Below, piece after piece: positions 6,560-64,000 of a DNA stretch of 64,000 nt. Below the pieces are notes generated by a model, which had not been told where the DNA came from, searched no databases, and saw only the letters and a program-made list of their open reading frames with translations. Numbering within the stretch: position 1 is the first letter of the stretch; each line of letters opens with the position of its first letter. This DNA comes from Candidatus Latescibacterota bacterium (GTDB lineage: Bacteria > Latescibacterota > UBA2968 > UBA8231), in NCBI GenBank assembly GCA_965200315.1, contig OZ241362.1, forward strand, positions 1,888,001 to 1,952,000, read 5' to 3'. Position numbers and translations under genes: made by a program.

Positions 6560-7552
6560 TTATTTGTCGTCCAGCCAGCTCATCATCGCACGCAGCCGGG
6601 TGCCGACGGTCTCGATCAGGTGCTCGGAATCGCGGCGCTTGATCGCATTGTACACCGGGCGGCCCACTTGGTTTTCGGCCAGCCATTCCCGCGCAAAGTG
6701 GCCGTTCTGCACGTCGGCGAGAATCTGCTTCATCTCCGCTCGCGTCTGCTCGCTTATCACCCGGCGGCCGCGCGTCAGGTCGCCAAACTCCGCGGTATCT
6801 GAAATCGACGAGCGCATGTTGGCAATGCCGCCCTCGTAGATCAGATCGACGATCAGCTTGACCTCGTGCAGGCACTCGAAATAAGCGACCTCGGGCTGGT
6901 AGCCAGCCTCGACGAGCGTGTCAAACCCCGCACGGATTAGCTCGGTCAAGCCGCCGCACAGCACCACCTGCTCGCCGAATAAGTCGGTCTCGGTCTCCTC
7001 GCGGAAAGTCGTCTCAATAACTCCGGCCCGGCCGCAGCCAATCCCCTTCGCGTATGCCAAGCCGACCTCGTGCGCCCGGCCAGTGGCGTCTTGGTACACG
7101 GCCAACAGGCCCGGCACACCACCCCCTTGCTGGTACACGCGGCGCACCAAATGCCCCGGCCCTTTGGGCGCAACCATGAACACATCGACATCGGTCGGCG
7201 GCACCACCTGCCCAAAGTGGATGTTAAACCCGTGGGCAAAGGCGAGGGCATTGCCCGCTTCGAGATTGGGGCGGATATCGGCTTCGTACACGGCCTTTTG
7301 GACTTCGTCGTTGATCAGGATCACCACGATATCGCCCCGCTTGCTGGCCTCGGCCACATCGGCGACCTCCAGCCCTTCGGCCTCGGCTTCAGCGCGCCGC
7401 TGGCTACCCGCACGCAGGCCCACCACCACCTTGACGCCGCTCTCCGCCAGGTTGAGCGAATGCGCGTGGCCCTGACTGCCATAGCCGATGACGGCCACGG
7501 TTTTGTCCGCGAGCAGCTCGAGGTTGGCGTCGTTGTCGTAGAACATTTGCAT
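6560..7552 (-). CDS. ilvC: ketol-acid reductoisomerase
   Basis: [46 protein letters not shown]. Confidence 0.97.
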
Positions 7553-55066: not shown

Positions 55067-56863
55067 TTACCTCTCGCCTTGGGCCATAGCCTCATTACCG
55101 ACCGGCTCCAGCCGGATAAAGGTCTTCAACAATTCCCACTGCCAAGAGTGCGGGAAGCCGTAGGGGTCTTGCTGGCTCGGCCAGCCGGTCCAGCGGGTGG
55201 TGTTGCAAGGATAGCGGATGATGAGCTGCGCCAAGAAGATGTCGGGCAACTCCCCCACCCAGATTTCCATGGCCTCCGCGAACAGCGCCAACAGTTCCTC
55301 GTCGCCGACCTGTAGAGGCGCGATGCGCTCGACAATGCGGTCGAACTCCTCGTTGCGCCAGCGCGAGGTGGTTGACCACAGCGGCGCCGGCTGGCCGGTG
55401 GGCCGGAAGTACTGAGAGGTGTAGTAAGACAGCATCAGATAAGGGTCCATGCCGCGCACCCCGCTAGGTCCCTTACAGCCGAGGGAAGCCTTCTGCTCTC
55501 CGGTCTGCACAAGCGAGGTCAGGCCGGGCGAGGTGTCGAAGTTCGCATCAAAACCAGCGTCGCGCAGTTGTTGGGTTAGCGGCGGACCGTAGGCCCGCAG
55601 CCACTGCGGCACGTACATGGCAATCTCGACGCGCTCGCCCTCTGAGTTGATCCACAAGCCCTCGTCGTCCTTGCGATAGCCTTTCCCCTCCATGATCCGA
55701 TCCACTTCTTCCAAGTGCGGCTTGGTGTCGTACCCGTGCCGGGCGAGAATCTCCTGCAGGGCCTCGTCAAAAGGCGCGAACCATTCGTAGGGCGTGAAGG
55801 GATGCAACGCGACCACGCCCGCGCCCGACTCGGCTAACTGGACGAGTTTCTCCCGGTCGATGGCCATGCTGATCGCCCGGCGAATCTGCGGATCGTCAAA
55901 CGGCGGCTCCGAGCAGTTCATGTTGAGGTCAATGGGGCACCAGTCCAAGTAGCCGTAGGGCGGCTCCCGCTCAGAAAAGGTCACGACCTGCGCATTGCGC
56001 TCTAACACGCTTTCGAGGGTGAGCACCTGCATGATGGGGGCCATGTCGAGCTGATCGGTCAGCAGCAGTTGCGCGGCTTGGCTTTCCTCTTGCTGCGGCA
56101 CGTAGATGATGCGCTCAATTCTCGGCAGGCGCTTGAACCCGGTCTTGGCCGCCCACCATTCCCGCCGCAGATCGTAGATTTTCTGGTAAGGCGAAGCGTA
56201 CACGAGGCGGTAGGGACCTGTGCCCAAGGGCAAGCCGCCGTCGATATCGTGGAACGTGAACTCTAGCGGGTCTTGGTCTTTCCAGATGTGCTCAGGCAAG
56301 ACGAAGATGCCGTGGTTGCTGCTCAGGGTGGTCGCCCAAAACGCGGGCCCCGCCTTTTTCAGCACCAGCCGCACTGTGCGGTCATCGACGACCTCGACGG
56401 AATCGAAGAACTCGGGCAGGTCGGCCAGATGCACCATGGACTCGGCGTGCTCACGCAGCAGGCCAAAGGTGAAGGCCACGTCGCGCGCGGTGAAGGGCAC
56501 GCCGTCGGCCCATTCAATGCCCGCACGCAGCTTCACGGTGAGCACAGTGAAGCTATCGTTGTACTCCCAGCTTTCGGCCAGCCAGTTCTCGTATTCCCCG
56601 GTGAGCACGTTGTACATAATCAGCGGCTCAAATACCGCCGGCAGCGTACCCATGTGGAACCCCTGATCCGAGCCGGGGATGTAGGGGTTCTGATTGTCGA
56701 ACAGGGCGTACTGGTTCGGCCCGCCGTTCATCAAGATCAGGGTGCGATCCCGGGGAACATCGTCTAGCACCACAGCCGGCCCGCAGCTAGCCAGCACCGC
56801 ACATGCCGCAAGCAGGAGTAGAGGCACCCCTTGTATGTTGAAGTTATTGTTTTTCAAAGGCAT
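55067..56863 (-). CDS. ABC transporter substrate-binding lipoprotein, family 5
   Basis: Lipobox LASC; LAESWE, LRAGIEWADGVPFTARDVAFT, GTGPY, PFDDPQIRRAI. Confidence 0.9.
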   Translation of the reverse strand: MPLKNNNFNIQGVPLLLLAACAVLASCGPAVVLDDVPRDRTLILMNGGPNQYALFDNQNPYIPGSDQGFHMGTLPAVFEPLIMYNVLTGEYENWLAESWEYNDSFTVLTVKLRAGIEWADGVPFTARDVAFTFGLLREHAESMVHLADLPEFFDSVEVVDDRTVRLVLKKAGPAFWATTLSSNHGIFVLPEHIWKDQDPLEFTFHDIDGGLPLGTGPYRLVYASPYQKIYDLRREWWAAKTGFKRLPRIERIIYVPQQEESQAAQLLLTDQLDMAPIMQVLTLESVLERNAQVVTFSEREPPYGYLDWCPIDLNMNCSEPPFDDPQIRRAISMAIDREKLVQLAESGAGVVALHPFTPYEWFAPFDEALQEILARHGYDTKPHLEEVDRIMEGKGYRKDDEGLWINSEGERVEIAMYVPQWLRAYGPPLTQQLRDAGFDANFDTSPGLTSLVQTGEQKASLGCKGPSGVRGMDPYLMLSYYTSQYFRPTGQPAPLWSTTSRWRNEEFDRIVERIAPLQVGDEELLALFAEAMEIWVGELPDIFLAQLIIRYPCNTTRWTGWPSQQDPYGFPHSWQWELLKTFIRLEPVGNEAMAQGER

Positions 56864-57385: not shown

Positions 57386-58288
57386 ATGGCTGAGTTGGAT
57401 ACGGTTTCCAAGCACCTGATTCAAACCTACCCCGCCGACTTCGTCCGTTTCACCATCCAGCGCGACGATATCGAAGTCGTCGAAGTGCTCGATACCGAGC
57501 AACCCACCGTCGAAACCCGCCGCACCGATAGCCTGATCCGCGTGCGTATCGGGGGCAAAGACGCCCTAGTCCACCACGAATTTCAAACCACCGATAGCAC
57601 CCGCCCCCCAATGCCCCGCCGCATGGCCGGCTACATCGGCCGCTGTATCGAGCGCTACGGACTGCCGGTGTACGCCTATGTCTTCTACCTGCGCCCCGCC
57701 GCCGGACGACGCGATCCGGGCTGCTACCTCCAAGCGCTTTGCGGCCACCAAATCTTCGTTCAATACAAGGTAATCCGCCTCAGCCAACAGGCCGGTCAGG
57801 CCGTGCTCGACCGGAAGCTTGCGGGCTTGTTGCCGTTGGCACCGTTGATGCAACCGCCGGCCGGACAGACCCCCAAGGCGTGGTTGGATCAATGTGTGGC
57901 CACGGCGGCGGCCGTGCCATTAGAACGGTCGATTAAGGCCAACTTTCTCGCTGGGTTAGCGATCTTGAGCGGATTAGTGTATAATCCTCAGACGATCACG
58001 GCCATTGTTTCCAAGGAGCATCTCATGGACCTCATCCACGAATCCTCGTTTGCCCAGTACCTCACCAAAAGTGCCCGTGAGCAAGGCATTGAGCAAGGCA
58101 TTGAGCAATGCCGCCGACTCAGTATCCAAGAAGTGTTGGCGTTGCGCTTTGGCCCCGGCGCGGCCCAATCCTTCGCCGCCGGCTTGGAGGCCATTGGCGA
58201 TGTACAGCGGCTCAAGCAGTTGCATCGGGCGGCTATACAGGTGTCCAGTCTCGAAGCCTTTAGGCACTTGGTAGAAGCCGACGAGTAA
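57386..58288 (+). CDS. Rpn/YhgA-like recombination-promoting nuclease (PD-(D/E)XK)
   Basis: RRTDSLI...VHHEFQT, MPRRMAGY, VFYLRP, GLLPLAPLM, C-terminal EQGIEQG repeats and LRFG. Confidence 0.85.
   Translation: MAELDTVSKHLIQTYPADFVRFTIQRDDIEVVEVLDTEQPTVETRRTDSLIRVRIGGKDALVHHEFQTTDSTRPPMPRRMAGYIGRCIERYGLPVYAYVFYLRPAAGRRDPGCYLQALCGHQIFVQYKVIRLSQQAGQAVLDRKLAGLLPLAPLMQPPAGQTPKAWLDQCVATAAAVPLERSIKANFLAGLAILSGLVYNPQTITAIVSKEHLMDLIHESSFAQYLTKSAREQGIEQGIEQCRRLSIQEVLALRFGPGAAQSFAAGLEAIGDVQRLKQLHRAAIQVSSLEAFRHLVEADE
58025..58288 (+). CDS. intragenic in-frame RpnS-like small protein (87 aa)
   Basis: AAGGAG-N6-ATG inside the rpn gene; TATAAT at 57980. Confidence 0.65.
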   Translation: MDLIHESSFAQYLTKSAREQGIEQGIEQCRRLSIQEVLALRFGPGAAQSFAAGLEAIGDVQRLKQLHRAAIQVSSLEAFRHLVEADE

Positions 58289-58323
58289 GGACGATCATGA
58301 TCATCTCTTCCAAGGAGCAGCTC

Positions 58324-58638
58324 ATGGACCTCATCCGCGAATCCCCGTTTGCCCGGCACCTCGCCGAATCCCTCCTCGCCAAAAGTGCCCGTGAGCAAGG
58401 TTTTGAGCAAGGTTTTGCGCAAGGTTTTGAGCAAGGTTTTGCGCAAGGTTTTGCGCAAGGCCGCCGACACTGTATCCAAGAAGTGTTGGCGTTGCGCTTT
58501 GACCCCGGCGCGGCCCAATCCTTCGCCGCCGGCTTGGAGGCCATTGGCGATGTGCAGCGGCTCAAGCAGTTGCATCGGGCGGCCATACAGGTGTCCAGTC
58601 TCGAAGCCTTTAGGCACTTGGTAGAAGCCGACGAGTAA
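58324..58638 (+). CDS. stand-alone duplicated RpnS-like protein (104 aa)
   Basis: Own AAGGAG-N6-ATG; 3' half nearly identical to the rpn C-terminus; 12-bp EQGF/AQGF repeats expanded. Confidence 0.75.
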   Translation: MDLIRESPFARHLAESLLAKSAREQGFEQGFAQGFEQGFAQGFAQGRRHCIQEVLALRFDPGAAQSFAAGLEAIGDVQRLKQLHRAAIQVSSLEAFRHLVEADE

Positions 58639-58962
58639 GGACACCGCAAAGACGTCCATCAGACTCCTTCCTGTCGCTCGGATGGATTGAGTACTCCAGC
58701 TAGGTCAATTAAAGGCGCATCGCGTCGTCTCATCGAGATGGCCGATCTGCGCCTCGGACGCGCCTGCGTGGTCGAGACGGTTTTGGACGATGGAGATGCG
58801 GCGAATCGCTATATCGTCACGCGGGGCTTGCGGCATCGTTCACCCACCTCCGTAGGACAGGTCGGCGGCTGCACCGCGCCGGCAATGGATCTTTCACCTC
58901 AGCGGCGTTTTGCGTCCGATGCTTCCATCTCACCGCCCACCGCTCGCTGAGAGCCTAACGCA

Positions 58963-61900
58963 TTAAACCTCGTCGCCTTTGGTCAGGCTTGGGAGCTCGC
59001 CGCGGGCCAGTTGGTCGTAGGCGCAGAGGACGTAGCGTTGGGTGCGGTATTCGCCAAATTCCTGCATCTCGTTGCGTTTGAGGGCTGGGAAGGACGCGCT
59101 CGGCGCGGGTGCGTCTAAAATCCATTCGAGGTCGGCGCGGTCTAGCTGGTATAGGTGCGCGAAAATGGCGTCTAGTTCGCACTTGAGGGCGTGGCGGCGG
59201 TCGTCGTCGTAGGAAAAGGGCGGGCCGTCGTAGCCAAGGTCGCGGGCGAAGCCTTCGAGGTCGGCGGCGGTGTACGTTAGCTCCAAGACGCGGGGGACGA
59301 TGAGTTCGACGTATCTGAGGCCGGGGAGCACTTCGTCGAGATAGGCTTCCGGCGGCAGGACGGGGAGTTGCTTGACGATGAAGAAGCTAAGATCTGTACC
59401 GCCAATCGCGGAGCGAGCCGCGAAGTCCAGCACAAGTGAATTGAGAGTTGAGACGAACAGGGCCGCAGCCTCAGCATCTTCGATATGGAGAAGTGGTGCC
59501 CGATCGCTCATGCCTGACCTCGGGACGAACGAAGCGATGCCGGTCCTCTCATTAGTGGCATTGGTGGTTTTTCGGAAGGGGATGATCCAACGTCCAGAGT
59601 AATGACGGCTCCTTTGTGACCAAGACCCGTCTTTGGAATAAGAGACGCTATCACTGTTCTCTGGTTGGTTGCTGTCGTGATCAGTCTCAAAGCCAACTTC
59701 CATTCTTGAGTCGGACGACCGTTCCCTTGCCCAATCCACTTCGCGGCACGATGGTGCTGATCGTCGTCCGTATGTCGGTCGATCTGGCGATGACTCGTAT
59801 CGCGATGTAGTACCGCGACCGATCCGATCCGATCCGATCCGATCCGATCCGATCCGATCCGATCCGATCCGATCCGATCCGATCCGATCCGATCCGATCC
59901 GATCCGATCCGATCCGATCCGTCAAAAATGGGGCTGTTTCGGTTTTGTCAAGTCTTTTTTTCACTTCTTCTTCCGGCACCCAATACCTCGGCAAAGGCAC
60001 TTGCTGCGCGTCCTCCTTTTCCGCCGCGGTCATGGGCCGGGCCTTGCCGCCTTGGCGGTCTTTTTCCGAAGCCCCCTCGAATGTGGCGAAGCGGTGATCG
60101 TACTGGTGAAACAGCTTGGCCTCGTAGAGCGGCAAGCAGGCTTCAACAGGCTCGGTGCTCGCTGCGTGCTCCCCTCCGCCCTCCTGCTGTCTTGTCGCGG
60201 GACGCACAAACACATTGCCCACAAGCTGCCAGCCCGCTTCTTCCAACTGCTCGCGGGTGCGAAAGAGGCCAGAGTCACTTGTCATATTGAACATTTGCAT
60301 GAACGTGACGCCCCAAGGGTTCTCCTCCGGCTCTGCACCTTTCGCTTCCTTCCACAACACACCGGCGCGGTCGTACATCTTGCGGGCAATTTCCATGTCG
60401 CGGCGGGTGCGGAAGATGGGGCAGGTGCGGGTGTTGGGATTGAACAGGGCGAAATCCTCGGCTGACAGGGCGAACCGCCGCGCCGAATCGCGCAGTTGCT
60501 CGGCCTGGTACAGAAAGAAGGCGAACTCGGCCTGTGGACAGGGGCGGTCCGCGCCGGTCAGGGTGAGCAGGCAGAATTTGATGCGGCTGTCTATGCTCGG
60601 AAACACCTTTTCCCGGTTCTCAAAGTCGTAGAGGCTGACGAGCCTTTTCTTCGTAACAATTTCGTCGAAAAACGCTTTGGTCGAATTATCCGTGGCAATG
60701 CCGGAAGGTACGATCAGGCCGGCGTGTCCCTCTGGCGATAGGAGTCGGAGAAACGTTTCTGCAAACAAAGCATAGCTGTTCAATTTGCCGTACGCTGTCA
60801 ATGGATGTCGTCCGCCACTACGACAAAATGCGTCCCTTGCATCGTATATGCGACTATCCAACTGGTACTGCTTCCAAAGTGGAGGATTGTGTTCCGCGAG
60901 TTGGGAGATGGCTCTCTTCCGTTCCGCACCCGACAAATCGGCAATGCTGGGTGCGCGTACTGCAAAGTACTCTTTTTCCGCGAGTTGAGACACCTCCCAC
61001 GGCGGATTCCCCAACACCACGTCAAACCCCCCGTCCTGCATGACCTCGGCAAAGGCGAGATGCCAGTGAAAAAAGCAGTGCTCGCGGGCTAGCTTGCCAA
61101 CCGCCTCGCCGACGCCGGGCCGCATGACCAAGCCGGCTTTGAGGCGATTGAAATCCTCGATGAGCGGCACCGCGTCGGTGCTGCCCCGCGTCTTTTTTGC
61201 AAAATACGCCCCGACAAACAAATTCGCCCGCAGTTCCTCTCTTGTGCGCTCTTCCTGTACACGCATGGCCTCATACGCGGTGCGCTTGCGCTCTACATCC
61301 TCAATCGTCTCCTCGGGCATGTCGCCGAAGTCGAGGGTCGCTACCGCCACTTCGAGCAAACTATCTTCGTCGAACAAGTTGCCCTGTACCTCATCTCCCG
61401 CTTGGCGGTTGCGCTTTTTGAGCTCGGTACAAACAGCCTTGTCATCGCCGGTCAAGGGCTTGTACGCAGCGGCCGGAATGCCGTTTGCCATGATCTCCGG
61501 GTCGAGGACGCCCACGAGGCTGTCACCGTGCAGAATGTGCGCGTCGAGAAAGCTCAGCGGCTTGCCCGGCTCCACGGTTTCGATCCACAGGGCGGTCTTG
61601 CACAGCTCAACCGCCAGCGGATTGCGGTCCACGCCGTAGATGCAGTTTTGCACCACTTCCCGCAGCGCATGCTGACGCACGGTTTCGTCGGAAGTAGGCC
61701 CACTCGAGCCGAGGCTTACTATTTCGGCCGCCATGCGCCGCGCCGCGGCCAACAGGAAATGCCCCGAGCCGCACGCCGGATCGATGACTCGCAAGGCGAG
61801 GATCGCTTCTCTCGGATCTTCAGGATGATCGGCGACAGCTTGAGCTAAGACAGGCTCCAGCGTCGATTTGATCAGCTCATTTACCAGAGTCTCGGGCGTG

Positions 61901-63306
61901 TAGTACGAGCCCGTTAGCTTGCGCTCGGAGCCTCTGCTCTTTTCGCTGCTGAGGCCATCGCCAACAAAGCCAAAAGCACAAGGCGCAGCACTCATGTCCA
62001 CCACAGGCTGAAGCTCCAAGAGGCTTTCGTACACCGAGCCGAGCTCTTCGGTGCCCATGTCTCGATAGTTGACGCGGGCGAGAGCCTCGTCAGTGCGGAA
62101 GGACGCTAAGTTTCGCACCGCCTCCAAAAGCCGCTCATTGGCAATGAAGGCCTCTTCCAAAGCCGGGCACTGATCTCGGCGGAACAGGCCCCCTAAAGCC
62201 GGCAATCCCAGCGCAGGCTCCCCTCGGGCGAGCGCACCGAAGATAATCCGCAGGCCCACATAGAGATCATGGTGGTGGTCGTAATGGCGTCGGCGCAAAG
62301 CGCGTTCGCGCAACCGAGAAAGGGAATACCCCTCGGTAAACAGGTCGCGCTGTTTTTTGGTGGCCCCCGGGGTGTGCAGCAGGTCGCGCTCTTCGGCCGT
62401 AAAGAGAAAGAGCAGGCGATAAATGAACCGGAGAAGCTGCTGGAAATAGCCCTCGGGCGAGAGCGTACCCTCGCTGAGGGCGGCGCACAAAGCAGCGTTG
62501 TTCGGGTGCTGGAGGAAACCATTGCCGATCTGCCGCAGGGCTTTGGTGACGCCAGTGCGGAGGTTATCTAAGGCGCGTTCACCGGTCTGATGCGCTTGCG
62601 TGCGCCAGCTTTCGATGATGCAACTAGACGGCTGGCCATTGGTTGGCTGCAACCGGCTGGCATGAGCGGTGAGCCAAAGGGCCGCAAAATCCGCATAGAG
62701 CCCCTCCGCGAACATGCGGTCCAAGTCGGCCTCAATGCAGGCGGGCCGCGTCAGGCTGGAGTTGTCGCGGAGCAGGCGCAGCTTTGCACCGTTGGAAATG
62801 ATCCCCCACAAAGAAGCGTCCTCGGCGTTGAGGTACTCTTGCATCAATCCGTGCGGTGCTTGCTGGCGTCCCTCGTGCCCAAACCGCGGATCGGCCTTGT
62901 CGAGTTCAAAGCCGTGCGTGGTCAACAAAAGGGGCACTGACTCGCTACAAGCGCGGTGGGTTAGAGCAAACCGGCGATCTCCGAGCGCGACGCTCGCAGA
63001 CGCGGTCAAATCGCCGTAGCCGAGGATGTCGCGCAACAAAGGCACAAGCCATTCGCCCACGCCGACGTGGTCTGCGCTGAGTTCGCGGCGCGGACAGCGC
63101 TCGGAATAACTCGCGTACAGATCGTTGGCAATGCGCCAATAGCGGGCCAGTTCCTCTTTGAGCGCGAGGGACTTAGAGAGGCCGTAGGCCATGCCGGTCT
63201 GTTTGGGAGCGTCCAATGCGGCGATGGTCTGGAGAAACTCAGGATGCAAAATGCCGCCTTTGATCCTGATAGCAATGAATCCGTGATCTTTTCGCGTTCG
63301 TGCCAT
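58963..63306 (-). CDS. type IIG/DrmMI-like REase-N6 methyltransferase with phase-variable TRD
   Basis: LGSVYESLL, GSYYTP, IDPACGSGHF, GNPPW, FNPNTRTCPIFR, PLYEAKLFHQYDHR, PRYWV; contains the (GGATC)20 tract. Confidence 0.9.
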   Translation of the reverse strand: MARTRKDHGFIAIRIKGGILHPEFLQTIAALDAPKQTGMAYGLSKSLALKEELARYWRIANDLYASYSERCPRRELSADHVGVGEWLVPLLRDILGYGDLTASASVALGDRRFALTHRACSESVPLLLTTHGFELDKADPRFGHEGRQQAPHGLMQEYLNAEDASLWGIISNGAKLRLLRDNSSLTRPACIEADLDRMFAEGLYADFAALWLTAHASRLQPTNGQPSSCIIESWRTQAHQTGERALDNLRTGVTKALRQIGNGFLQHPNNAALCAALSEGTLSPEGYFQQLLRFIYRLLFLFTAEERDLLHTPGATKKQRDLFTEGYSLSRLRERALRRRHYDHHHDLYVGLRIIFGALARGEPALGLPALGGLFRRDQCPALEEAFIANERLLEAVRNLASFRTDEALARVNYRDMGTEELGSVYESLLELQPVVDMSAAPCAFGFVGDGLSSEKSRGSERKLTGSYYTPETLVNELIKSTLEPVLAQAVADHPEDPREAILALRVIDPACGSGHFLLAAARRMAAEIVSLGSSGPTSDETVRQHALREVVQNCIYGVDRNPLAVELCKTALWIETVEPGKPLSFLDAHILHGDSLVGVLDPEIMANGIPAAAYKPLTGDDKAVCTELKKRNRQAGDEVQGNLFDEDSLLEVAVATLDFGDMPEETIEDVERKRTAYEAMRVQEERTREELRANLFVGAYFAKKTRGSTDAVPLIEDFNRLKAGLVMRPGVGEAVGKLAREHCFFHWHLAFAEVMQDGGFDVVLGNPPWEVSQLAEKEYFAVRAPSIADLSGAERKRAISQLAEHNPPLWKQYQLDSRIYDARDAFCRSGGRHPLTAYGKLNSYALFAETFLRLLSPEGHAGLIVPSGIATDNSTKAFFDEIVTKKRLVSLYDFENREKVFPSIDSRIKFCLLTLTGADRPCPQAEFAFFLYQAEQLRDSARRFALSAEDFALFNPNTRTCPIFRTRRDMEIARKMYDRAGVLWKEAKGAEPEENPWGVTFMQMFNMTSDSGLFRTREQLEEAGWQLVGNVFVRPATRQQEGGGEHAASTEPVEACLPLYEAKLFHQYDHRFATFEGASEKDRQGGKARPMTAAEKEDAQQVPLPRYWVPEEEVKKRLDKTETAPFLTDRIGSDRIGSDRIGSDRIGSDRIGSDRIGSDRIGRGTTSRYESSPDRPTYGRRSAPSCREVDWARERSSDSRMEVGFETDHDSNQPENSDSVSYSKDGSWSQRSRHYSGRWIIPFRKTTNATNERTGIASFVPRSGMSDRAPLLHIEDAEAAALFVSTLNSLVLDFAARSAIGGTDLSFFIVKQLPVLPPEAYLDEVLPGLRYVELIVPRVLELTYTAADLEGFARDLGYDGPPFSYDDDRRHALKCELDAIFAHLYQLDRADLEWILDAPAPSASFPALKRNEMQEFGEYRTQRYVLCAYDQLARGELPSLTKGDEV
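59488..59812 (-). other. three tandem homologous TRD cassettes in three different frames
   Basis: C1 (59812) YYIAIRVIARSTDIRTTISTIVPRSGLGKGTVV; C2 (59702) WKLALRLITTATNQRTVIASLIPKTGLGHKGAVI; C3 (59589) WIIPFRKTTNATNERTGIASFVPRSGMSDRAPLL. Confidence 0.85.
59821..59920 (-). repeat. pentanucleotide microsatellite (GGATC)20
   Basis: 20 perfect GATCC units on the + strand; encodes (GSDRI)n with no stop in any frame. Confidence 0.98.
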
Positions 63307-63376: not shown

Positions 63377-64000
63377 TCACAAACTCGCCATGGGCATAAA
63401 AACATAGACCCCGATCTTGTCAACAGGCAGCACCGGAATCACGTCGTATCGCAGGCCCTTAGCATCGCTGGCCTCGCGGATGCGCCGATGGTCCGCCAAC
63501 AACTCCCGCGCCCGCTCGTGTGCGAGGCGATCAAACGTGTCTTCTAGGGCGGGGACCGCATCGCGGGCTTGCCTAATGAGGTGAGTTTTCTGGGCGTCTT
63601 CCATGTTGCGGCCCGGATCTGAGGACAGTAGCGACAGCGCCTTTTCCTCGGTCAATAGTTCAGGGTCGTTGCCCCCGCGAACCGCGACCCCAAGACACTC
63701 CTCGGTTAGGAGCGACTTCAGAGGCGCGTACCGGCCGTTGGCACCGCGCTGCTCCACTCGAAGCTGACTGCGCAGACGCAGCAGGTAGAGCACGGTGCGT
63801 GTGCTGATTTCTCGGGCGAACATGGCACTTGCCCGGGCACCGAGATCGGGTTGCCCGGCGTCGAGGGCCTGTTCAGCCACGTAATCAGCGAGTGCCGCAA
63901 CCAGCCGATGGGCCCGGTGGATATAGTCCGCCCCGGTTGGCGCAGGTTGGGCAAAGGCAAGTCTTGCAGCCGCTTTGAAGCCCATGGCATCGAGGCGGTC
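63377..64000 (-). CDS. C-terminal part of a probable SNF2/DrmD-like helicase (5' end outside window)
   Basis: HRAHRLV...RARELLADHRRIREAS...PVDKIGVYVFMP ending, typical of helicases preceding such MTases; motor motifs not visible. Confidence 0.6.
   Translation of the reverse strand, partial: DRLDAMGFKAAARLAFAQPAPTGADYIHRAHRLVAALADYVAEQALDAGQPDLGARASAMFAREISTRTVLYLLRLRSQLRVEQRGANGRYAPLKSLLTEECLGVAVRGGNDPELLTEEKALSLLSSDPGRNMEDAQKTHLIRQARDAVPALEDTFDRLAHERARELLADHRRIREASDAKGLRYDVIPVLPVDKIGVYVFMPMASL

Follow-up and report, generated by a model that had tools for sequence, protein, structure and literature searches.

Several bacterial DNA methyltransferases vary in phase through simple sequence repeats (SSRs). 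As described in passages of the literature on the Type III mod genes and the Type IIG enzyme Cj0031, a non-triplet repeat lies within the methylase open reading frame (ORF), and its slippage shifts the frame and switches the enzyme ON or OFF, as part of defence or epigenetic switching. According to main-text passages of PMC9881135, Cj0031-type enzymes vary through a poly-G tract and Class 1 DISARM DrmMI-like genes vary by programmed inversion, and passages of PMC2823697 describe homopolymeric tracts in Helicobacter canadensis that lie near the 3' part of a gene and alter the C-terminal sequence without abolishing the protein. Here we describe a DrmMI-like N6-adenine methylase gene of Candidatus Latescibacterota bacterium, located in a stretch of 64,000 nucleotides (nt) that we refer to as the window (assembly GCA_965200315.1, contig OZ241362.1, positions 1,888,001 to 1,952,000). 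The gene carries a (GGATC)20 repeat, and we suggest that its frame-shifted states probably need not be dead, judging from what the three downstream frames encode and from a putative internal start that could supply the C-terminus as a separate chain.

The locus resembles the Type III mod and Cj0031 systems in the position and action of its repeat. Unlike in those, as far as the published passages describe them, the shifted frames here run into homologous cassettes that are under selection and into a conserved overlap of a stop with a start codon. With the DISARM DrmMI inversions it shares the family, the neighbourhood (a DUF1998 helicase and an SNF2 helicase) and the fact that methylase coding sequence is varied, but the variation takes the form of repeat slippage and frame-coded cassettes rather than DNA inversion, and the main-text passages of PMC9881135 (as distinct from its supplements) describe no split-chain state. 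The resemblance to Helicobacter canadensis ends at the altered C-terminus, as homologous alternative-frame cassettes and reinitiation are not mentioned in the passages of PMC2823697. A further parallel is that with translationally coupled overlapping genes, in which the upstream stop overlaps the downstream start and a Shine-Dalgarno (SD)-like element lies just upstream; 226 ATGA-type overlaps are found among 8127 crude ORFs of this genome. Unlike in coupled gene pairs, the overlap described here lies inside one gene, and of the three heritable repeat-length states only one would make use of it. In titles and abstract openings, a literature search returned no description of homologous cassettes in several frames behind a repeat and none of a methylase that switches from one fused chain to two separate chains and back; nor did the phrase 'all three reading frames' occur in the papers listed by the search on phase-variable methylases.

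The repeat lies within the TaqI-type target-recognition region of the methylase, and its 5-nt unit, not divisible by three, is placed inside the ORF, as expected of an SSR phase-variable gene. By frame arithmetic, 20 units keep the main frame, 21 lead into a second frame and 19 into the third. Downstream of the repeat, a strand-loop-strand segment of the target-recognition region with the motif W..FR.I...T..RT.I....P..G, which we call a cassette, is written three times, once per frame (Table 1). The frame of cassette 1 ends in IAIRVIARSTDIRTTISTIVPRSGLGKGTVVRLKNGSWL and a TGA stop, that of cassette 2 reads WKLALRLITTATNQRTVIASLIPKTGLGHKGAVITL...RGQA before its own TGA (59510-59508), and cassette 3, in the main frame, leads on to the C-terminal half of the enzyme. 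Near the end of cassette 3, the main-frame ATG at 59511-59509 (codon M1266) would give a predicted product of 182 amino acids (aa) starting MSDRAPLLHIEDAEAAALF, and the stop of the cassette-2 frame falls exactly on this ATG. From these sequence features, together with the comparisons and modelling described below, we consider it rather probable that coupled reinitiation at ATG 59511 occurs in the cassette-2 phase, and regard it as the best explanation of the arrangement.

Three hidden Markov models (HMMs), one for the sequence that precedes the repeat (UP), one for the cassette (CAS) and one for the C-terminal half (CT), were built from a homologue alignment and scanned against the three forward frames of 189 related loci and the window. 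In 153 loci the order is plain: UP is followed by one in-frame cassette and then by CT, and no repeat disturbs the frame. Another 25 distinct loci, counting the window, carry an SSR with a unit of 1, 4, 5 or 8 nt at the equivalent site, followed by two or three cassettes that differ in frame, and are spread over Alpha- and Gammaproteobacteria, Acidobacteria, Rhodothermales, Verrucomicrobia and Dehalococcoidia. The closest comparison is offered by a same-genus orthologue, L163, with a C-terminus 92% identical to ours and (GACAG)27 in place of (GGATC)20. Cassette 1 differs from its counterpart by 8 synonymous and 10 nonsynonymous changes in its own frame, against 5/14 and 3/18 in the other two. 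The corresponding counts are 5/2 for cassette 2 (0/8 in the main frame and 2/6 in the remaining one), 6/1 for cassette 3 (1/7 and 0/7) and 26/10 for the C-terminal half (5/32 and 4/32). This pattern of substitution shows purifying selection on each cassette in its own frame. Because synonymous changes are in excess in every cassette's own frame, the alternative frames appear to be translated and to matter, and the comparison thus supports the view that alternative-frame cassettes are real coding sequence.

Some of these loci have a second architecture, in which one alternative-frame cassette is followed by two main-frame cassettes and the third frame holds no cassette and meets an early stop (L002, L004, L005, L006, L039, L083, L087, L090, L091, L093, L094 and L164-L166). 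A true OFF state and two cassette states would therefore exist there.

Both tract length and phase differ between genomes. In same-genus orthologues the repeat unit turns over while the repeat site stays, with (GACAG)27 at 1185-1319 in L163, (GACAA)20 at 1150-1249 in L165, (GACAG)14 at 1183-1252 in L166 and (CACG)5 at 1234-1253 in L164. All three phases are present among 21 assemblies with an upstream anchor: the enzyme is full-length in 5, ends after an alternative cassette in 10 and is cut short without any cassette in 6. Periodic peptides encoded by the repeat were counted by eye in about 20 of the 33 homologues listed. The flank at 58900-59860 is present, with no differences, in contigs of an RNA library (X1), in which DNA may occur, and in X3; these contigs end within the repeat, and the depth of raw reads is 0-10. 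Each GGATC unit also contains GATC, so that the tract amounts to 20 potential Dam-type sites in a row.

The start at 59511 stands out within the gene. The ORF contains 20 internal in-frame ATGs, 2 with a GGAG, GAGG or AGGA core at positions -16 to -4 and 4 forming ATGA, and M1266 is the sole one with both. The SD-like element makes use of the rare arginine codon AGG, which accounts for 6 of 108 arginine codons outside the out-of-frame stretch, and the genome as a whole uses SD sequences, which precede 36.5% of crude gene starts compared with a background of 9.5% inside genes. Searching Pfam with the 182-aa product, or with the last 445 aa, gave nothing at E <= 1. A scan of 58700-60100 yielded 0 sigma-70-like promoter sites, so that the product would depend on the operon mRNA.

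In the relatives, the overlap was scored at cassette position 27/28 (G-M/S in the window, the stroke marking the codon boundary), with the same three SD cores sought at -16 to -4; comparisons between classes are given as proportions. Among main-frame cassettes that follow an alternative-frame cassette, (A/G)TG/A is found in 18/24 (13 ATG/A and 5 GTG/A), compared with any NTGA in 11/147 single-cassette relatives, usually as V-G, and in 0/14 second main-frame cassettes. Alternative-frame cassettes mostly have leucine codons (CTN or TTG) at position 27, with a single GTG/A, and the main-frame cassettes that follow them never have leucine there, but ATG in 14, GTG in 6 and ATA, ATT, GTA and GTC once each. 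In the 18 overlaps the codon at position 28 always begins with A, coding for Ser (AGY) or Asn, and TCN serine codons do not occur. By eye, the overlap is also visible in L010, L093, L003 and L088, where cassettes were missed by the HMM alignment or are frame-shifted, and in L085 and L107 an ATGA, or an ATG 4 nt before the stop, lies just ahead of the last cassette. In 14 of the 25 loci, the +1-frame cassette meets no stop before the TGA of the overlap. An SD core precedes the position in 8/24 of the following main-frame cassettes, a rate near that of gene starts in this genome, and in 8/148 single-cassette, 0/14 second main-frame and 1/30 alternative-frame cassettes. Judging by these alignments, a stop-start overlap at one exact cassette position is conserved, including an SD-like core upstream. 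The co-location of an upstream stop with a downstream start, kept in relatives, is a comparative criterion for translational coupling in passages of PMC3711429, and this is what the loci display. The first-pass annotation of this DNA had placed GAGGT-N5-ATG in the main frame ahead of a 182-aa product, with the cassette-2 frame stopping on that ATG. Both observations were exact to the base (59521-59509 for the element and start), and the check it proposed, on conservation of the start and its SD element in homologues, has the outcome given by the proportions above.

Natural split forms point in the same direction. Three cases allow the C-terminus to be made only as a separate ORF: L010 has a stop within the cassette before the last one, hence no full-length reading, and an intact C-terminal ORF whose first ATG is that of the conserved ATGA; L088/L089 have lost the core of the corresponding cassette and have a main frame closed by stops, and their C-terminal ORF begins ATGAGT followed by the conserved tail; and in L003 an insertion splits the gene, leaving a C-terminal ORF with its own ATG. 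This insertion is of about 425 nt (~6690-7120), lies between cassettes and contains a small reverse-strand ORF ending ...GIGIIGATVALIKLLP. Further to that, 1288 database proteins of 100-319 aa, all of them gene-caller predictions, match the 182-aa product, and of the 120 best short matches among these, 103 start exactly at the conserved position. As in the window, 38 of the 103 have a MSDRAPLL-like start and a length of 177-192 aa, and the remaining 65 begin with MSNKAPLL, MNEGAP, MNHKAP or MSHHVP-like sequences, are ~220-228 aa long and contain one extra cassette. As predicted ORFs, they show how widely this start codon has been kept and how common shifted states are.

An AlphaFold2 model of residues 840-1447 has a mean predicted local distance difference test (pLDDT) score of 73 and a predicted template modelling (pTM) score of 0.75. 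The repeat peptide and the out-of-frame stretch (model residues 284-398) are disordered in it, cassette 3 forms strands at 401-407 and 417-419, and M1266 (model residue 427) lies in a loop between the second of these and a short tail strand at 433-436. What remains of the C-terminal model is helical with pLDDT mostly >90, and values >90 extend over most of the 182-aa product. No chain in the PDB matches by sequence at E <= 0.01. Compared by fold with solved enzymes (VIA-align), residues 840-1393 match M.BseCI with Z 14.2 (root-mean-square deviation 4.5, 319 residues aligned) and CamA with Z 13.5, followed by BpuSI (11.3), PglX (11.1), M.TaqI (10.6) and MmeI (9.1). The matched C-terminal part of these six enzymes is what we take to be their DNA-recognition domain. 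Because the fold matches gamma-class N6-adenine methylases, we assign the cassette and the 182-aa product to the target-recognition part. Unlike our locus, M.BseCI, CamA, M.TaqI, PglX/BrxX, BpuSI and MmeI are single chains with one copy per element.

L163, which is naturally in the cassette-1 phase, provided a pair for complex prediction, consisting of a 485-aa fragment that begins at the NPPW motif and ends at the cassette-1 stop, and of the 177-aa product from the conserved ATG. The structure prediction of a split complex that had been called for in the earlier annotation thus gave a positive outcome, as the pair scored 0.90 in three runs against 0.06 for the best of 3 controls. This mark is reached by 58/80 solved complexes and 2/110 mismatched pairs, counts that hold only roughly here because we supplied our own alignments. 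The runs agreed in at least 89% of contacts, the pLDDT of the partner was at least 86, and the predicted interface includes residues 441-463 and 465 of the alternative cassette. As a model, this shows a cassette-1 version compatible with the C-terminal half; binding in the cell is not implied.

For the cassette-1 phase, a second main-frame ATG at 59703, just before the cassette-1 stop at 59689-59687, had been singled out as a possible site of coupling. These coordinates too proved correct. The ATG is composed of the last base of one codon and the TG of a cassette-2 tryptophan codon (A+TGG). Among 6 loci with tryptophan at this place, 2 read ATGG, namely the window and L163, the other 4 (L002, L084, L085 and L088) having CTGG or TTGG, and in the loci with an upstream cassette, L084, L085 and L088, the cassette-1-type stop is 53-62 nt away from the equivalent site. 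Because ATG 59703 is not conserved, we rejected it as the site of coupled initiation in the cassette-1 phase and regard it as probably incidental. Since the cassette-1 stop and this ATG are not conserved together, the C-terminus in the cassette-1 phase would need independent initiation at 59511. The idea that both apparently truncated phases form split enzymes by translational coupling is therefore partly supported. It agrees with the coding nature of the alternative cassettes, the conserved overlap, the natural splits and the predicted assembly, but coupling is not upheld for the cassette-1 phase.

We propose the following sequence of events. The methylase gene would be phase-variable through its pentanucleotide repeat, but shifts of frame would amount to more than simple OFF switching, as every repeat length would join one version of the cassette to the body of the enzyme. 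At n=20, ribosomes would read cassette 3 and continue into the C-terminal half, giving a single chain of 1447 aa. At n=21 they would read cassette 2, halt at its TGA and restart on the overlapping ATG, aided by GAGGT, giving the last 182 residues as a second chain. At n=19 cassette 1 would be read and the 182-aa chain would come from independent initiation at the SD-ATG. In either shifted state this chain may dock onto the truncated enzyme beside the alternative cassette and rebuild the recognition region. That reinitiation occurs, that the two-chain enzymes are active and that the three forms differ is what we infer from sequence and structure models. A wider reading, in which the repeat acts as a three-position selector, with isoforms rebuilt from two chains in the shifted positions, rather than as an on/off switch, is possible but can be advanced only tentatively.

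Several points weigh against reinitiation. SD-like cores are absent in 16/24 of the following main-frame cassettes. In L004, L006 and L164 the +1 frame stops 5-8 codons ahead of the ATGA, and in L005, L009, L094 and L007 it stops where the next cassette begins. The overlap could be an inherited feature held in place by an amino-acid preference for M/V-S/N, and the TGA stop, like the start, requires NTG/A, which makes the two selections only partly separable; the counts also overstate independence because loci share ancestry. The RNA around the start folds with a z of +1.59, 191 of 200 shuffles folding at least as well, and no sequestered start was seen; being no more structured than shuffles, it lends no support to a hairpin opened by the ribosome. 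In the two-chain models, both chains would carry a 'tail' strand, neither tail is placed confidently in the complex, and pairs cut from a single fold tend to do well in complex prediction. That 16/21 assemblies are not full-length also fits a costly system mostly kept off.

This last point leads to a classical ON/OFF switch, in which n=20 (mod 3) alone is active, the products of cassettes 1 and 2 are dead, and the G-M-S codons merely happen, by inheritance, to spell ATGA next to SD-like bases. Such switching by SSRs is, according to published abstracts, the rule for phase-variable methylases, the two-frame type of locus does have a cassette-less frame that would be truly OFF, and the missing SD cores fit as well. 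Unlike dead frames, however, the alternative cassettes keep the family motif and purifying selection in their own frame, the C-terminal ORF has stayed intact in L010, L088/89 and L003, where full-length reading is impossible, and (A/G)TG/A is far more frequent after alternative cassettes than in controls; we regard a plain switch as unlikely. The same selection on cassettes would be expected if the truncated cassette-1 and cassette-2 enzymes worked without the C-terminal half, for example as modification-dead partners of the helicases, with the 182-aa ORF not separately translated, as it shows that truncated chains matter and not that the C-terminus joins them. But each of the 153 single-cassette relatives has its cassette and the C-terminal half after it joined in one chain, the predicted interface sets the alternative cassette against that half, and separate C-terminal ORFs persist intact with a conserved start position, all of which makes this explanation distinctly improbable.

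It may also be that translation starts constitutively at the internal SD-ATG whichever of the three phases is read, and that the free C-terminal chain acts independently, for example by regulating the full-length enzyme or competing with it, instead of complementing the truncated enzymes. An SD-ATG is independent of the frame read upstream, the RNA here is less structured than its shuffles, and the cassette-1 phase has no conserved stop-start overlap. Nevertheless, in 14/25 loci the +1-frame stop falls exactly on the start, which argues for termination-reinitiation, and the chain is predicted to occupy its normal intramolecular position; of the readings weighed here we hold a constitutive start to be the least probable. 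Coupled reinitiation in the cassette-2 phase remains the reading that we prefer.

Phase-variable methylases are usually read as on/off systems, and their frameshifted copies enter genome annotation as pseudogenes or as a pair of unrelated ORFs. If our reading is true, many 'broken' DISARM-like methylases in environmental genomes would be functional, and one repeat would encode three forms of an enzyme through all three frames of one stretch of DNA. Repeat length would then directly report heterogeneity of defence and of the methylome in uncultured symbionts. Under the more tentative selector reading, isoforms would recognise different DNA targets or link methylation to the helicase partners in different ways, and the locus would represent a heritable multi-state epigenetic or defence switch, spread horizontally over many phyla.

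Table 1. Position of the methylase gene, its repeat, cassettes and putative internal start in the window.
Feature	Position	Strand	Basis
N6-adenine DNA methyltransferase, DrmMI-like	58963..63306	-	ORF, Pfam, PADLOC DrmMI 8e-72
Simple sequence repeat (GGATC)x20, inside the ORF, sets the downstream frame	59821..59920	-	sequence; homologues with SSRs at the same site
Cassette 1, frame read at n=19, ends at TGA 59689-59687	59687..59806	-	CAS HMM 26.6 bits, E 4.8e-08
Cassette 2, frame read at n=21, with 28-aa out-of-frame tail, ends at TGA 59510-59508	59508..59702	-	CAS HMM 34.8 bits, E 1.3e-10
Cassette 3, main frame, n=20: WIIPFRKTTNATNERTGIASFVPRSGMSDRAPLLH	59485..59589	-	CAS HMM 67 bits, E 1.2e-20
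Main-frame ATG near the cassette-1 stop, probably incidental	59701..59703	-	A of the preceding codon plus TG of a cassette-2 Trp codon
Shine-Dalgarno-like GAGGT, five bases (59516-59512) ahead of the ATG	59517..59521	-	sequence; AAGGT in orthologue L163
ATGA, putative start codon overlapping the cassette-2-frame stop	59508..59511	-	sequence; ATG/A or GTG/A kept in 18/24
Predicted 182-aa C-terminal product: tail strand and helical C-terminal half of the target-recognition region	58963..59511	-	main-frame translation
SNF2 helicase gene, 953 aa (DpdE/DrmD-like), 3' part; extends past the window	63377..64000	-	profile matches

The methylase is the last gene of a three-gene defence operon. Its 1447-aa translation contains VVLGNPPWE, with the NPPW motif of N6-adenine methyltransferases, and matches the Pfam families Eco57I (1e-21), N6_Mtase (6.4e-10) and MmeI_Mtase. 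The top defence-system profile is PADLOC PDLC02643 (DrmMI), with Type IIG profiles next, and the stretch that best matches DrmMI comprises residues 458-774 only; the NCBIfam models of BREX PglX scored far under their cut-offs on this protein. Upstream, on the same strand, are the 953-aa SNF2 protein (DpdE 5.7e-210, DrmD 4.8e-86) and a protein of 1760 aa with DEAD, Helicase_C and MZB/DUF1998 domains, for which the top PADLOC names are DruE and, weakly, DrmA. In our judgement these neighbours correspond to the drmA helicase, drmB DUF1998 and drmD SNF2 genes of DISARM. A drmC gene (phospholipase D (PLD) nuclease) was not found, as no PLD domain occurs in the five upstream ORFs scanned and the flanks consist of Opp-type ATP-binding cassette (ABC) transporter genes. 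For want of a PLD gene among the scanned ORFs, the locus is filed as a DISARM-like island and not as a verified member of Class 1 DISARM, though drmC is dispensable in some DISARM systems.

The three-gene island is inserted within the Opp-type ABC transporter cluster (55067-56863 of the window, and 8788-12723 of L001 beyond it), so that a solute-binding protein lies to one side of it and two ATPases plus a permease to the opposite side. Two adjoining paralogous ORFs, at 57386-58288 (+) and 58297-58638 (+), are found close downstream of the methylase and have in-frame 12-nt tandem repeats (58392-58460, 5.8 copies; 58078-58108, 2.6 copies) that encode EQGF/EQGI-type peptides; the first of the two, of 300 aa, has no match in Pfam. 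Two remnants of the methylase family were also seen: in L167 (G139), at ~1240-1600, the first ~95 methylase residues are joined straight to the C-terminal half by a large internal deletion, and L168 (G133) retains part of the C-terminus only, with a stop. The genome that carries the window has a second member of the family (G000:C1:3971147-3971746), which is 44% identical and has an open frame of 1331 aa.

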